Shown piece after piece: positions 24,729 through 40,469 of a stretch of 42,021 bases of DNA; the first letter of the stretch is position 1, and the number at the start of each line of letters is the position of its first letter. Source of the stretch: a virus (lineage: Duplodnaviria; Heunggongvirae; Uroviricota; Caudoviricetes); IMG/VR virus record IMGVR_UViG_2703718855_000003, positions 1 through 42,021 of that record; one strand, given 5' to 3'. The notes under the pieces are model-generated. The model saw only the letters and a program-made list of their open reading frames with translations, made no database searches and had not been told where the DNA came from. Made by a program: the position numbers and the translations under genes.

Positions 24729-24803
<75 letters not shown>

Positions 24804-25090
24804 ATACTGTGCTGGCCCCCGGAATAACACGAATTACCAAGAGAGCCCGCACTGGTCTTTCCGGTGGCAAACAGCACCCCTGCTAACATAAAAGATAAAC
24901 ACCTTCCAGACGCAAAAATACTAACAACTGTTTTTCAGATATCCAAAATATATTTGGTTTTTATTTTTGAAAATATGTATACATATGTATCATAAATATA
25001 CAAGCCATATCATAACCGAATTAAAAATCTTTAGTTATCTCTTTTGCCGTCTGATCACCACCCACCGGCAGCTGAGAATTCCGGCACACA

Positions 25091-25153
25091 ATGAAAAAGG
25101 CCCGCCAGGGCGAGCCATAAAAACTGAATAAAAAAACCGCCCGGGGCGGCGGC
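25091..25153 (-). repeat. Copy 2 of the 65-bp direct repeat / terminator (downstream of the degenerate tRNA-like sequence)
   Basis: ATGAAAAAGGCCCGCCAGGGCGAGCCATAAAAACTGAATAAAAAAACCGCCCGGGGCGGCGG; minus-sense hairpin followed by a T-run. Confidence 0.6.
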
Positions 25154-25519
25154 TAAAACGATAAAAGGACACAATATTATAATGATTATTGGGTTTGGGG
25201 CATCGGGTGCCTCCCGAAGTATTCCACTTTACGTGGATACTGTGGTTTCCCGCTAAACCGACTCTATAAACCACCCTCGCACTGAGGAACGCCCCAATTC
25301 ATGTTTTCCGACACAGAGATGGCGCATCACTGGTTACTCCACGCTAAATCCTGCTTCCTTTCGTGGGCAATGCGCCATTTCTGTGTCATAAAAAATACAG
25401 CACTGAGTCTGTAACCGATCTCCATTACAGAATGAGGGACGATAAAGGTATTAAAGAGATCTGTTCCTCACGAAAACCGCCAGTGCTGTAAAAACTTGTC
25501 CAAAAAACAATGAAGTTGC

Positions 25520-25590
25520 GGAGAACAGGAATCGAACCGGCATTACCAACCTAAGGCTGATGTAATAACCACTATACGATACCTGCATAT
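25520..25590 (-). pseudogene. Degenerate tRNA-like sequence (decayed copy sharing the D-arm and T-loop of the tRNA-Gly scaffold)
   Basis: Reverse complement GCAGGTATCGTATAGTGGTTATTACATCAGCCTTAGGTTGGTAATGCCGGTTCGATTCCTG... shares the D-arm and T-loop with the tRNA-Gly at 24729-24803, but acceptor and anticodon stems do not pair. Confidence 0.4.
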
Positions 25591-26107
25591 AGAGCAGGCC
25601 TCCGTAACCACAATAATGACACTGATACCGATAACAGCCCTTCATTATGATTAAACGGATGCCAGCAATGACCCGCAAGACAGCGGGTAACACCCCTGTG
25701 AACAGAAACTTGCTGCCTTTCGGGTCGAGAGTAATATTACCGATAATTTATATGACATCAAAAACTAATTAGTTTTCATATTTAAACATATGTATAAATA
25801 TGTATCAGACGCATACAATTTATGTTATTTCATCCAGACTTCTGATTTCTCACAGGAAATTGCGAAAAAAAACAACATAAAAATGAACAAATTGGGAGTA
25901 CGCTAACTCCGTTGTCGCAATAAATCACAGTAAGCTCTTCAGAAATAACAGTTCACAAGACTTACATCAACAGTAGTTTTTGTAATGATTAATGTTAACT
26001 GTAGCGTTGAAAAGAAAAGTTTTGACGAAATATGGTGAACTAACAGAGCCTAACGAATAGCCCTATTACGCCGAGCTAATAGCGCTGCCAGCTAAACTTG
26101 CATGGAA

Positions 26108-26184
26108 TGGTCCGCCACCGAGGACTCGAACCTCGCACAATCAACTTAGAAGGTTGATGCTCTATCCCGATGAGCTAGTGGCGG
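26108..26184 (-). tRNA. tRNA-Arg (anticodon UCU)
   Basis: 77-nt cloverleaf: acceptor CCGCCAC/GTGGCGG, D-arm GCTC-ATCGGGATA-GAGC, anticodon arm TCAAC-CTTCTAA-GTTGA, T-arm CGAGG-TTCGAGT-CCTCG, encoded CCA. Confidence 0.85.
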
Positions 26185-26186
26185 AA

Positions 26187-26262
26187 TGGTGGCCCTTGCT
26201 GGATTTGAACCAGCGACCTGGCGATTATGAGTCGCTCGCTCTCACCACTGAGCTAAAGGGCC
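26187..26262 (-). tRNA. tRNA with CAU anticodon (tRNA-Ile2/ileX-like; Met not excluded)
   Basis: 76-nt cloverleaf GGCCCTT...AAGGGCC-A-CCA, anticodon loop CTCATAA; closely resembles E. coli ileX as recalled; 2 nt upstream of the tRNA-Arg. Confidence 0.85.
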
Positions 26263-27734: not shown

Positions 27735-27908
27735 TCATTCCCGAATCACCTTGAAACCGAGCCTTTCAAGATATTCAATGAATGCCTCGATAGATAAAAT
27801 TACATGATTATCAGGGATTAACGTTGCGTAGATAACTTCCCCATTCTCAACGCGCACAGCAAAGAGGCCATTTTCACTAAAAATTTCACGTAATTCTTCA
27901 ATTTTCAT
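27735..27908 (-). CDS. Small hypothetical protein (57 aa)
   Basis: ATG at 27908; MKIEELREIFSENGLFAVRVENGEVIYATLIPDNHVILSIEAFIEYLERLGFKVIRE; below track cutoff; AAGGA about 10 nt upstream. Confidence 0.3.
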   Translation of the reverse strand: MKIEELREIFSENGLFAVRVENGEVIYATLIPDNHVILSIEAFIEYLERLGFKVIRE

Positions 27909-28030
27909 CAACAGAATCCTTCCAGATAAATAGCACCCCCCTGTTCGGGGTCCATCCCTCTTCTCCCTGCGCGCTACTTAAGTATTTTTGATTCTATTCC
28001 GGCATCGTCCATAACTTCAAACGTATTGAA

Positions 28031-28058
28031 AATAAAAACAAAAACCCGCCGAAGCGGG
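28031..28058 (-). terminator. Intrinsic terminator downstream of hok
   Basis: Minus-sense AACCCGCTTCGGCGGG followed by TTTTTGTTTTTATTTT. Confidence 0.45.
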
Positions 28059-28128
28059 TTAAGTGCGGGTGCGTTGAAGATGCCTGACACATCATAGGCG
28101 GCGAGGGATTTCTCCCTCGCCTGGTCTC

Positions 28129-28284
28129 TTACTCCTCAGGTTCGTAAGCTGTGAAGACAGCGACCTCCGTCTGGCCGGTTCGGATTCGTACCTCGCAGAG
28201 GTCTTTCCTCGTTACCAGTGCCGTCACTATGACGGTTAAACAGATGACGATCAGGGCGATTAACATCGCCTTTTGCTGCTTCAT
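28129..28284 (-). CDS. hokD: Hok-family type I toxin (small membrane peptide); overlapping upstream mok-like frame extends to 28341
   Basis: 51 aa MKQQKAMLIALIVICLTVIVTALVTRKDLCEVRIRTGQTEVAVFTAYEPEE: Hok signature (hydrophobic helix, LCE(V/I)R, periplasmic tail). The track ORF 28129..28341 is the mok-type overlapping frame. Confidence 0.85.
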   Translation of the reverse strand: MKQQKAMLIALIVICLTVIVTALVTRKDLCEVRIRTGQTEVAVFTAYEPEE

Positions 28285-28574
28285 AGCCTGCTTCTCCTTG
28301 CCTTTCGGCACGTAAGAGGCTAACCTACATTTGTGAGACATAGATTGGGCCTCAGATTAATGTTAAGCGTCTTGCAGGACGCGTAATGTTAACTGGGGCT
28401 TTTCTCTATCTGCCTTTGGTGTTCATGCCCGAGGCAGATAGCCTCAAGCACCCGCAGCAATTCTACTTAACTCTCCTTTTCCCGCAAACCGTTTTTATCC
28501 CCAGCGGCAAATCGAATACACCACCAGCGCCACCGCCATCGCAATTCCTACCGTGGTGAATGCCTCAGGCCGGG

Positions 28575-29279
28575 TCATTGATTCACCTCCTGCGGCGGTT
28601 CTGGTAGCGGCATCCAGTGAGTTGAGCTCTCTACTTCGACGCCGTCTTTGTCTACAAAAGCCATCTTATTCCCGCCACGAGTGGGGCAAAAAACCTTATC
28701 CCAGGAACCGGGGAATACATTCCCGAGATCATCGAGAAGAATCACATCGCAATATTCAGCAGGAACTGCATCACTACAGCTTATCCAGCCAGCCGGAGTT
28801 CCCGGAGAGCTGGTTGACGTTTCCGAGATTTCCCGAAAATTGTTGGTTGACGAATTCTTACTTTCCCGAAAGTTTTCGGCCTGAAGCATGGCGACACGGC
28901 AGGCGTTCCAGCCATCAGCATATGTTTCAGTTACACCGTCGAGATGGCAGGTAAGCAAATCCATTTCATCAGGCACTACCATCGCTGGCGGCGCTGCGTA
29001 AAGCGGTGTTATTTCTGCCCGAAAATCACCTACTTTATGCAGTCGCACCCACCGTTCGATTTCTGCTTTGTCAGAATTCATAAGGGTGAACGTATTACAT
29101 TCATGGTTAATTTGCGTGAAGGTTGCCTTCCACGCCACCGGCTCTGCTTCCAGTGATGCCAGTGCAATTTTGAATAACTCGCCCTCTACCTGCGCCATCC
29201 CTGAATTTGAGTGGCATTTCGCAATCGCTATTTTTAATTTGGCTTCTTCGATTAATTGCTCTTTGGTTAATTCAGTCAT
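28575..29279 (-). CDS. Hypothetical phage protein, C-terminus ...THWMPLPEPPQ (DUF551-like as I recall)
   Basis: 234 aa; conserved-looking W-x-PLPEPP C-terminal motif typical of an enterobacterial prophage family of unknown function. Confidence 0.45.
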   Translation of the reverse strand: MTELTKEQLIEEAKLKIAIAKCHSNSGMAQVEGELFKIALASLEAEPVAWKATFTQINHECNTFTLMNSDKAEIERWVRLHKVGDFRAEITPLYAAPPAMVVPDEMDLLTCHLDGVTETYADGWNACRVAMLQAENFRESKNSSTNNFREISETSTSSPGTPAGWISCSDAVPAEYCDVILLDDLGNVFPGSWDKVFCPTRGGNKMAFVDKDGVEVESSTHWMPLPEPPQEVNQ

Positions 29280-40078: not shown

Positions 40079-40288
40079 ATGAGAGAAAAAACAATGCGGT
40101 ATGAAAAAGTCAAACCATGCCCTTTTTGTGGTTGTCCATCAGTAACGGTGAAAGCCATTTCAGGATATTACCGCGCGAAGTGTAACGGATGCGAATCCCG
40201 AACCGGCTATGGTGGAAGTGAAAAAGAAGCACTCGAACGATGGAATAAACGAACCACTGGAAATAATAATGGAGGTGTTCATGTATAA
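40079..40288 (+). CDS. ralR: Restriction alleviation protein (Lar/RalR family)
   Basis: 69 aa with KPCPFCGCPSVTVKAISGYYRAKCNGCESRTGYGGSEKEALERWNKR, the Lar zinc-ribbon signature. Confidence 0.75.
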   Translation: MREKTMRYEKVKPCPFCGCPSVTVKAISGYYRAKCNGCESRTGYGGSEKEALERWNKRTTGNNNGGVHV

Positions 40289-40469
40289 AATTACCGCCAC
40301 TATTGAAAAGGAAGGTGGCACTCCTACTAACTGGACAAGGTACTCAAAAACAAAGTTAACCAAATCGGAATGCGAAAAAATGCTCTCAGGGAAAAAAGAA
40401 GCAGGCGTTTCCAGAGAGCAGAAAGTAAAACTGATAAATTTTAATTGCGAGAAACTTCAGTCCTCGTGA
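40281..40469 (+). CDS. ydaC: YdaC-like small protein
   Basis: ATG at 40281 with GGAGGTG upstream (track ORF 40209..40469 starts inside ralR); 62 aa. Confidence 0.5.
   Translation: MYKITATIEKEGGTPTNWTRYSKTKLTKSECEKMLSGKKEAGVSREQKVKLINFNCEKLQSS

Follow-up and report, generated by a model that had tools for sequence, protein, structure and literature searches.

A putatively intact hok/mok/sok toxin–antitoxin cassette in the nin region of a lambdoid Escherichia coli prophage

Does a short toxin-like gene on the minus strand of this prophage belong to a complete hok/mok/sok cassette, and what would such a cassette do for the phage that carries it? The hok/sok family has been under study since the 1980s, and laboratory E. 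coli has several chromosomal hok loci that are silent relics. A preliminary description of the DNA analyzed here (a viral stretch of 42,021 nucleotides, hereafter the window) had proposed a type I toxin–antitoxin locus of the hok/mok/sok type embedded in a prophage. The sequence-level hallmarks of such a locus were present, in a single copy within the window, and its elements are collected in Table 1. Positions 28487–28033 of the minus strand read as a complete hok transcription unit within an intact hok/mok/sok type I toxin–antitoxin cassette. In the best explanation, which we regard as very probable, the cassette is both intact and autonomous and forms a "moron" within the nin region of an E. 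coli lambdoid prophage.

Table 1. Elements of the predicted hok/mok/sok cassette (positions are those of the window)
Element	Position	Strand	Remarks
hok promoter	28487-28460	-	-35 TTGCGG (28487-28482), 16-nt spacer, -10 TAGAAT (28465-28460); read from the sequence
Full-length hok mRNA	28453-28033	-	about 420 nt, from 5' GGGUGC to the U-tract past the terminator; ends predicted
tac element	28453-28442	-	GGGUGCUUGAGG; mRNA 5' end, pairs with fbi
Leader hairpin	28406-28441	-	CUAUCUGCCU / AGGCAGAUAG; 16-nt loop; first inner stem of RF01794
ucb (anti-Shine-Dalgarno box)	28401-28395	-	AAGCCCC; base-paired to the mok SD region of the full-length fold; nearly invariant
mok SD	28350-28353	-	GAGG; precedes the mok AUG by 8 nt; base-paired when the mRNA is full length
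mok frame	28341-28129	-	70 codons, in frame with hok, common stop codon
dcb	28320-28316	-	GCCUC; pairs with the mok SD region when the leader is open
hok SD	~28293-28298	-	AAGGAG; overlaps the Sok -35
hok toxin gene	28284-28129	-	51 aa + stop; MKQQKAML...LCEVRIRTGQTEVAVFTAYEPEE; Pfam, PHROG, RefSeq identity
3'-UTR hairpin	28121-28100	-	GGCGAGGGA / TCCCTCGCC; 9 bp, 4-nt loop, stable
fbi (fold-back inhibitory element)	28079-28067	-	CUUCAACGCACCC; tac partner
Intrinsic terminator	28060-28033	-	stem 28060-28043 (AACCCGC/GCGGGTT), loop TTCG, U-tract ~28042-28033; terminator scan
Sok promoter	28298-28326	+	-35 TTGCCT, 17-nt spacer, -10 TAACCT; start G 28333
Sok RNA	28333-28403	+	71 nt; single-stranded 5' tail of ~13 nt, long hairpin, U-rich end

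The 51-aa peptide, which had been assigned to the Hok family by eye, is hydrophobic and contains the conserved Cys and the LCE(V/I)R motif of Hok/Gef proteins. It matched PF01848 (HOK_GEF) with 82.9 bits (E = 1.2e-23; Pfam cut-off, 22) and PHROG 251, "MokW-like host killing" (E = 2.8e-33), and is identical to the RefSeq protein WP_000813254.1, named HokD. The NCBIfam Hok models matched with scores under their curated cut-offs (48.5 versus 73 and 40.2 versus 89), so that naming as HokD through the NCBIfam HMM was not reproduced; identity to relE-linked copies confirmed the name instead. The overlapping upstream frame, previously noticed as mok-like, adds 19 N-terminal codons upstream of hok. 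Its start region would be the target of the antisense RNA, and translational coupling of the two frames is predicted. The same layout is seen in the annotated mokW of the Stx2 phage 933W and in the R1-type plasmid locus (71 codons, in frame). An out-of-frame mok had been expected for R1, but the R1-type plasmid copy shows it in frame with hok, and the in-frame mok at 28341 is therefore no departure. Four other short ORFs, two across the terminator (27974–28090 and 27994–28095) and two on the plus strand antisense to hok and its leader (28151–28315 and 28386–28559), were judged to be spurious, since each lies across RNA elements and matched no family.

A consensus promoter scan detected neither the hok nor the Sok promoter because their -35 hexamers are weak; both were placed by homology to phage 933W and by conservation, and the hok promoter stretch matches the sequence that precedes hokW in that phage at 100% identity. 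Transcription of hok would start at G 28453, which corresponds to position 1 of the Rfam model RF01794, and the leader is approximately 170 nt long. RF01794 matched 28453–28279 of the minus strand over its full length (model positions 1–157) with 117.7 bits (E = 2.4e-26; gathering threshold, 59). The model is named "sok antitoxin (CssrC)", but it matches the hok strand, as far as the hok AUG, indicating that it describes the open-fold hok mRNA leader and not the Sok strand; Sok is the reverse complement of matched positions 51–121, and the window differs from the model by a 16-nt insertion in the second hairpin. The inverted repeat reported in the leader at about 28400–28440 consists of TATCTGCCT (28407–28415) and AGGCAGATA (28432–28440) and forms a 10-bp stem, counting one flanking pair. 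Farther downstream, the hairpin claimed at 28098–28123 was found a few bases off, at 28100–28121, and the terminator scan returned the terminator claimed at 28031–28058 as a stem at 28060–28043 with a U-tract extending to about 28033. The hairpin at 28121–28100 is a feature suited to halting exonucleases and, by analogy, would stop 3' exonucleolytic trimming and so set the truncated, active mRNA.

The preliminary description had predicted an antisense transcript at about 28290–28400 and considered that its gene could not be delimited by eye. We delimited it by transferring the coordinates of the annotated sokW misc_RNA of phage 933W through the 94%-identical alignment, and the predicted promoter and RNA agree with the expected interval. 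As judged from the sequence, Sok has its own promoter inside the hok leader, and it is perfectly complementary to positions 51–121 of the hok mRNA, spanning the mok SD and AUG. Both promoter hexamers are within strongly conserved blocks (major-allele frequency, 0.91–0.93). The Sok hairpin folded with -32.7 kcal/mol (z = -6.0), is terminator-like and is approximately 18 to 20 nt longer than that of R1. Primer YO-421, as we read it, indicates that this same -10 was apparently the one mutated to deprive sokW of its promoter, in the construct with which the toxicity of HokW was unmasked (PMC8621323).

Structure prediction, which had been named as a check of the leader, gave a minimum free energy (MFE) of -172.3 kcal/mol for the 418-nt hok mRNA, compared with -126.1 ± 5.6 kcal/mol for shuffled sequences (z = -8.3); like the Rfam score, this is well outside what chance would give. 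The full-length fold pairs the 5' and 3' ends of the mRNA: tac and fbi (28453–28442 with 28079–28067) form 12 pairs with one bulged C and with pairing probabilities of 0.94 to 1.0. After in silico 3' trimming, the leader could refold in the model to a near-isoenergetic open fold. The unconstrained MFE structure of the trimmed mRNA pairs tac with the immediately downstream hairpin (the "metastable" form) and not with ucb, and the tac/ucb fold (GGG(U)GCUU/AAGCCCC) was 1.1 kcal/mol above this MFE when imposed; in nascent RNAs of 60 to 170 nt, the tac/ucb fold is itself the MFE structure. Because the canonical open fold needed imposing and was 1.1 kcal/mol less stable, thermodynamics alone neither proves nor refutes the switch. 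The GAGGC/GCCUC helix between the SD and dcb appeared in the folds of the nascent and trimmed transcripts and in the Rfam consensus structure, and dcb adjoins the Sok -10, as in R1 (PMC9841398). The mok SD was mostly paired in both computed ensembles, and freeing of the SD was absent from them. Both ucb and dcb have the right complementarity, and their columns are nearly invariant and hence give no covariation signal.

These elements can be arranged along the R1 hok/sok mechanism as summarized in PMC9841398, from which the role of ucb is also taken. The weak hok promoter would give a stable mRNA of about 420 nt, in which the 5' tac is clamped to the 3' fbi; in this closed form, ucb would hold the mok ribosome-binding site (28353–28350), so that neither ribosomes nor Sok could engage the mRNA. 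As the 3' end was slowly trimmed to the 28121–28100 hairpin, fbi would be lost, and the leader would refold with tac paired to ucb and the SD to dcb, which would make the mok start and the target of Sok accessible. As long as the cassette is transcribed, the short-lived 71-nt Sok would pair across the mok start region, block translation of mok and the coupled translation of hok and trigger cleavage of the duplex. If Sok synthesis stopped, as might happen when the prophage is induced, when an infecting phage shuts off transcription or when the element is lost, Sok would decay, Mok and Hok would be made, and Hok would insert into the inner membrane and collapse it. The window allele is presumed to be toxic like hokW of the 94%-identical hokW-sokW locus, whose toxicity is neutralized by sokW expressed from its own promoter in 933W/Sakai prophage 5 (PMC8621323).

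We examined the conservation of the unit in 35 homologues from Escherichia, Kluyvera, Photorhabdus, Pantoea, Citrobacter, and other genera. In the consensus fold, 98.2% of cells were paired, compared with 36 to 46% when the partners were slid, and 17 pairs had changed on both sides; none of 500 shuffles was as good. The leader hairpin (99.6% of cells paired, two doubly changed pairs) and the 3' hairpin at 28121–28100 (97.5%, three doubly changed pairs) were both retained. Position 4 of tac covaries with fbi across genera in a compensatory manner (UA in 22 sequences and CG in 11), and inspection by eye showed additional matching changes, among them GAGA/UCUC in Kluyvera and Photorhabdus. Column-wise counting in the MAFFT alignment covered the outer six tac/fbi pairs, since a one-base bulge shifts the inner six between lineages, and covariation for the tac/fbi, ucb, and dcb helices comes from a single pair because most positions are invariant. 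The conserved blocks were tac (major-allele frequency, 0.93), ucb, the mok SD (0.98, the best-conserved block of the leader), the Sok -10/dcb, and the Sok -35/hok SD. By contrast, the 5' tail of Sok is hypervariable (11 of 18 columns vary in close relatives). Of 5426 complete E. coli genomes, 3928 (72%) had at least 80% of the unit, with up to 10 related copies per genome; as a speculative possibility, the variable tail may make these hok/sok copies mutually orthogonal.

The R1 hok/sok (parB) locus and R1-type IncF plasmids share the architecture of the window element by element, although global alignment gave only ~57% nucleotide identity, Hok is 44% identical to R1 Hok according to the hokW paper (PMC8621323), and the carrier is a plasmid for R1 and a prophage for the window cassette. 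The R1-type tac is GGCGCUUGAGGC, compared with GGGUGCUUGAGG in the window; the leader hairpin, ucb (..AGCCCC), mok SD (GAGGC), dcb (UAGCCUCUUAC), hok SD (CAAGGAGAAG), in-frame mok, 3' hairpin, fbi (..GAAGCGCC), and closed fold with 5'/3' end pairing are common to both. The comparison with hokD (relF) of the K-12 Qin prophage is different in kind: the Hok peptide is 100% identical, as found through relE-linked loci, and the setting in the nin region of a lambdoid prophage is similar, but Qin-type copies have relE directly upstream and show homology only from 28298 downward, and they consequently have no Sok -10, mok start, ucb, tac, or hok promoter. Pedersen and Gerdes, in 1999, reportedly regarded K-12 hokD as having neither sok nor mok. 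The window copy keeps all the missing elements, and no relE is found upstream of it, where a DUF551 gene and a 27-aa ORF are located instead of the leaderless arrangement downstream of relBE. By sequence, the gene product is HokD and the locus is of the intact hokW type. Truncated relatives of the Qin type are nevertheless common, and the neighboring prophage genes include pseudogenes, both of which would suit a decaying relic, an outwardly intact cassette with no physiological activity that is passively inherited with the prophage and from which Hok is never released. We consider this very unlikely, given that all regulatory elements are intact, the functional hokW locus has an identical promoter region, the ORF, frame, and fold are all kept, and the functional blocks are selectively conserved while the intervening sequence varies.

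The closest experimentally studied locus is hokW/mokW/sokW of phage 933W (GenBank AF125520) and of Sakai prophage 5 (Sp5) (Takada et al. 2021, PMC8621323). Nucleotide identity was 94% over 444 nt from the promoter to fbi and 92% over 537 nt, corresponding to 28057–28593 of the window. The hok promoter, Sok promoter hexamers, tac, ucb, and dcb are identical in the two loci, and the 71-nt Sok, 70-codon in-frame mok, 51-aa Hok, and a conserved small upstream ORF are shared. The differences are located at the C-terminus of Hok (..VFTAYEPEE, HokD-like, in the window versus ..VFVDYESEK implied by the hokW primers), in Sok, where five or six of the first 14 nt differ from sokW and Mok codons 2 to 4 differ with them, and in the terminator and downstream flank. 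hokW-sokW has been shown experimentally to be a pair of a Hok toxin and a Sok antisense antitoxin; upon induction, sokW RNA vanishes and HokW appears, and deletion of hokW-sokW halves the phage yield with no effect on growth in uninduced lysogens, so that its demonstrated role is to help lysis and phage release on induction (PMC8621323). By analogy, the window cassette would most likely also serve to damage the membrane earlier and to improve the release of phage upon induction. However, the window cassette is located in the nin region, between the replication/nin genes and a Q-like antiterminator gene, with hok in the sense orientation to the delayed-early (pR-driven) early-right operon, whereas the 933W cassette sits beyond the tail genes, and the role of hokW therefore need not transfer.

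The stabilization or abortive infection proposed in the preliminary description is a plausible function under the same mechanism. If the main role were abortive infection or exclusion, a superinfecting lytic phage would stop host transcription, Sok would decay, and Hok would kill the cell too early for the invader to finish its cycle, sparing sister lysogens. R1 hok/sok on a high-copy plasmid cut T4 plating by 42% and plaque size by ~85% (cited in PMC8621323), and the cassette, self-contained from promoter to terminator, is a moron of a prophage that has a second type I system, RalR/RalA (ralR/ralA). The R1 effect is weak, however, and the phenotype measured for the nearest relative is release of its own phage and not defense. 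In addition, no PADLOC defense-system model matched Hok or the neighboring genes, and the cassette has no place among the defense systems catalogued there. We regard abortive infection as a possible, if unlikely, main role. Another candidate is addiction or prophage stabilization: in cured cells, the stable hok mRNA would outlast Sok and the cells would die, much as post-segregational killing works for plasmids. On plasmid R1, hok/sok classically has this role (PMC9841398); hokW is annotated as "prophage maintenance" in 933W, and related phage records read "phage maintenance protein." Killing of cured cells would rarely matter, as excision normally accompanies lytic development, the up to 10 related copies per genome could cross-protect unless their Sok tails are orthogonal, and the deletion of hokW-sokW was without effect on the growth of uninduced lysogens. 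We therefore find addiction rather improbable as the main role, and phage release on induction remains the preferred reading.

The orientation of the cassette suggests a more speculative link to induction, which we put forward as a long shot. Antiterminated read-through would hit the Sok promoter head-on upon induction, silence Sok by transcriptional interference and supply hok-sense RNA. If this were true, Hok release would be hard-wired to prophage induction, the speed with which sokW RNA disappears after mitomycin C, so far unexplained, would have a mechanism, and the hok terminator would also serve the nin region as a terminator that gates expression of Q.

The hok/mok/sok cassette described here is real but ordinary, being of an already known kind; given the age of the family, the 94% match to a tested phage locus and its occurrence in 72% of complete E. 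coli genomes, it has little discovery value. The practical gain is a set of exact coordinates for an antisense RNA, promoters, and regulatory boxes that are unannotated, as the RefSeq annotation at this locus consists of the hok CDS only. The RefSeq name "hokD" conceals an intact hokW-type locus and not the leaderless form of K-12.

The 51-residue Hok-family peptide of the preliminary description was recovered from an ORF listing of both strands and matched Pfam HOK_GEF with 82.9 bits (E = 1.2e-23) and PHROG 251, "MokW-like host killing", with E = 2.8e-33. An in-frame upstream ATG lengthens this ORF to 70 codons, which gives the overlapping mok-like frame of that description. Its inverted repeat in the leader (arms TATCTGCCT, 28407-28415, and AGGCAGATA, 28432-28440), its hairpin at 28098-28123, and its terminator at 28031-28058 were likewise present, with coordinates at most a few bases out. 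The locus is therefore real and its interpretation as a hok/mok/sok type I toxin-antitoxin unit is right; the window contains only one copy. A whole-window Rfam scan placed RF01794 "sok" (117.7 bits, E = 2.4e-26; gathering score, 59) at 28453-28279 on the minus strand, with the full model covered. This "sok antitoxin" match is to the hok-sense strand and stops at the hok AUG: what RF01794 describes is the leader of the hok mRNA and not the strand of the Sok RNA, and an antitoxin annotated by the strand of the match would land on the wrong strand.

Elements of the hok/mok/sok locus, in window positions (SD, Shine-Dalgarno; tac, ucb, dcb, and fbi, mRNA regulatory boxes named after the plasmid R1 model)
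Feature	Position	Strand	Sequence or remark
hok promoter -35	28487-28482	minus	TTGCGG
hok promoter -10	28465-28460	minus	TAGAAT
mRNA start	28453	minus	G; placed via 933W alignment
tac	28453-28442	minus	GGGUGCUUGAGG
Leader hairpin	28441-28406	minus	inverted repeat of the preliminary description
ucb	28401-28395	minus	AAGCCCC
mok SD	28353-28350	minus	GAGG
mok AUG	28341	minus	
dcb	28320-28316	minus	GCCUC
hok SD	about 28298-28293	minus	AAGGAG
hok CDS	28284-28129	minus	51 aa plus stop; MKQQKAMLIALIVICLTVIVTALVTRKDLCEVRIRTGQTEVAVFTAYEPEE; ORF listing, both strands read
3' hairpin	28121-28100	minus	GGCGAGGGA/TCCCTCGCC
fbi	28079-28067	minus	CUUCAACGCACCC
Terminator stem	28060-28043	minus	7 bp, GC-rich, then U-tract; terminator scan
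Sok promoter -35	28298-28303	plus	TTGCCT; overlaps hok SD
Sok promoter -10	28321-28326	plus	TAACCT; 17-nt spacer before
Sok start	28333	plus	G
Sok RNA	28333-28403	plus	mapped from annotated sokW of 933W

The closest annotated relative was hokW/mokW/sokW of the Stx2 phage 933W (AF125520), in whose record a "SokW antisense RNA" of 71 nt is annotated together with mokW (213 nt) and hokW (156 nt). Pairwise alignment showed 94% identity over 444 nt and 100% identity in the promoter region (BLAST homology reaches 28057-28593), and it mapped sokW, the mRNA 5' end, and the mok start onto the window. The mapped Sok RNA is perfectly complementary to nucleotides 51-121 of the hok mRNA, inside which ucb, the mok SD, and the mok AUG all lie; the antisense gene, which the preliminary description had left unplaced, is thus delimited. 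The predicted Sok RNA consists of a single-stranded tail of ~13 nt, a long hairpin (-32.7 kcal/mol, z = -6.0), and a CUUUU end. The 5' tail (28333-28348; alignment A1 columns 106-123) doubles as Mok codons 1-4. Among seven close relatives, no part of the leader varied more than the tail and its target (11 of 18 columns, vs 3 of 40 for the hairpin of Sok), and differences from 933W likewise cluster there. This variability would fit orthogonality among co-resident copies, and the tail is a possible specificity determinant against cross-reaction of co-resident hok/sok copies.

Structure prediction, which the preliminary description had proposed as a check, paired the 5' end of the 418-nt hok mRNA to its 3' end, with a minimum free energy (MFE) of -172.3 kcal/mol vs -126.1 ± 5.6 in dinucleotide shuffles (z = -8.3). 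All 12 tac/fbi pairs had probabilities of 0.94 to 1.0 in the Boltzmann ensemble. A homologue scan using one genome per species recovered 53 related loci, from Escherichia, Shigella, Kluyvera, Photorhabdus, Pantoea, Citrobacter, Pseudocitrobacter, and Erwinia, and 34 of them, in which both the 5' and the 3' elements were recognisable, went into an alignment with the window. RNAalifold retained the 5'/3' helix on this alignment, together with 11 others. Standard pairs filled 98.2% of cells, vs 36 to 46% when the 3' partners were slid by 1 to 3 columns; 17 pairs had changed on both sides, and none of 500 shuffles matched the observed values. At position 4 of the tac/fbi helix, 22 sequences have U-A and 11 have C-G. 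Matched changes (GAGG/CCUC, GAGA/UCUC, and GAAG/CUUC) were also seen in the homologue sequences in the inner half of this helix, where a bulge displaces the register and so precludes column-wise counting. Conservation maxima coincided with the predicted functional boxes of the leader (major-allele frequency: tac, 0.93; ucb, 0.89; mok SD, 0.98; Sok -10/dcb, 0.93; Sok -35/hok SD, 0.91).

In the R1 model (PMC9841398), tac of the nascent RNA pairs with the adjoining downstream sequence in a metastable hairpin, the full-length RNA is closed by the tac/fbi helix with the mok SD held by ucb, and the open RNA, after 3' trimming, has tac/ucb and SD/dcb helices. In silico removal of fbi and the terminator refolded the 5' end of the window's mRNA. 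The trimmed MFE (-142.5 kcal/mol) corresponded to a hairpin of tac with the immediately downstream sequence, and the tac/ucb fold, GGG(U)GCUU with AAGCCCC, lay 1.1 kcal/mol above it. The tac/ucb fold was itself the MFE of nascent RNAs of 60 to 170 nt, in which the SD/dcb helix GAGGC/GCCUC also appeared; this structure is that of the RF01794 consensus. The alternative folds that the R1 model demands are therefore available. The computed ensembles of the full-length and trimmed mRNA alone did not show the mok SD becoming free; we infer from the model that refolding would free it. It is very probable that the locus works by the canonical hok/sok mechanism.

In an R1-type IncF plasmid locus, the elements and their order are the same and mok is likewise in frame, but overall identity is only about 57%. 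The Hok peptide of the window is K-12 HokD, which Qin-type loci (relE directly upstream) also encode; their homology to the window, however, ends at 28298, so that the Sok -10, mok, ucb, tac, and the hok promoter are all missing from them. What the window carries is therefore a complete locus of the hokW type whose product is the HokD peptide. E. coli RM11911, RM13745, and RM13752 have the surrounding 801 bases on their chromosomes with 100% identity, and their annotation covers only the toxin CDS, under the name hokD. Of 5426 complete E. coli genomes, 3928 contain at least 80% of the unit made up of promoter and mRNA, at up to 10 places per genome, and related copies occur in 267 phage and 1465 plasmid records.

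All neighbours are on the minus strand: upstream lie lambdoid replication and nin genes, including those for a YdaV-like ATPase and for DUF977, DUF1627, and DUF551 proteins, and downstream lie DUF1367, DUF1364, and DUF1133 genes, tRNA genes, holins, and an endolysin. These genes place the cassette within the nin region of a lambdoid prophage, with hok read in the same direction as the early-right operon. Phage mEp460 is homologous over 27904-28472, and the core common to the 933W and mEp460 matches (roughly 28057-28472, promoter to terminator) has mosaic junctions at both sides, an arrangement typical of a prophage "moron". Both flanking genes look degraded or mosaic: the downstream 58-aa ORF (27735-27911, minus) matches positions 12-68 of the 85-position PHROG 340 profile and is partly a pseudogene in RefSeq, and the 234-aa DUF551 ORF (28575-29279, minus) is annotated as one short CDS and two pseudogene fragments in RM11911, whose flank aligns at 99.96%. 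Just upstream of the hok promoter, an unannotated hydrophobic 27-codon ORF (MTRPEAFTTVGIAMAVALVVYSICRWG; 28495-28578, minus) has a strong SD (AGGAGG) and an ATG overlapping the DUF551 stop (ATGA). An unannotated counterpart with 77% amino acid identity occurs in 933W, and two further E. coli loci retain the ORF at 96%. It had no match in Pfam, PHROG, or NCBIfam and could be a small membrane protein travelling with the cassette.

The prophage carries a second type I pair adjoining the integrase and Rac-like recombination region (40079-40288, plus, and 40287-40465, minus), namely, the toxin RalR (162.6 bits on the NCBIfam equivalog; cut-off, 113) and the antisense sRNA RalA (RF02694, 218.5 bits; cut-off, 170). 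Between tRNA-Gly (24731-24803) and tRNA-Arg/tRNA-Met(CAT) (26108-26262), the ~1.3 kb at 24804-26107 is free of RefSeq features and of ORFs exceeding 80 aa; it follows the Q-like gene and precedes the holins, which is the site of stx in Stx phages. A marginal tRNA-like Rfam match within it (25517-25586; 31.8 bits, cut-off 29) was not called by ARAGORN.

The family is long known, and the locus is near-identical to a phage locus that has been annotated and characterised by experiment. In 933W/Sp5, HokW is toxic and is neutralised by sokW expressed from its own promoter, mutation of which unmasks toxicity; RNase III and Hfq make partial contributions (PMC8621323). As far as the primer (YO-421) is readable, the mutated bases are the AGGTTA/TAACCT -10 shared with the window. 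On induction with mitomycin C, sokW RNA is lost and HokW appears in the inner membrane, dependent on RecA; when the locus is deleted, growth arrest comes later and phage release falls by half (PMC8621323). Within the operon driven by pR, the cassette lies in sense orientation ahead of the Q-like gene; we speculate that, on induction, transcription reading through from upstream would run into the Sok promoter and that the hok terminator may serve as a nin-region terminator. By analogy with hokW-sokW, the best-supported role would be earlier membrane damage and better phage release on induction; the rival roles, abortive infection and addiction, are compatible with such a lysis aid and not mutually exclusive with it.
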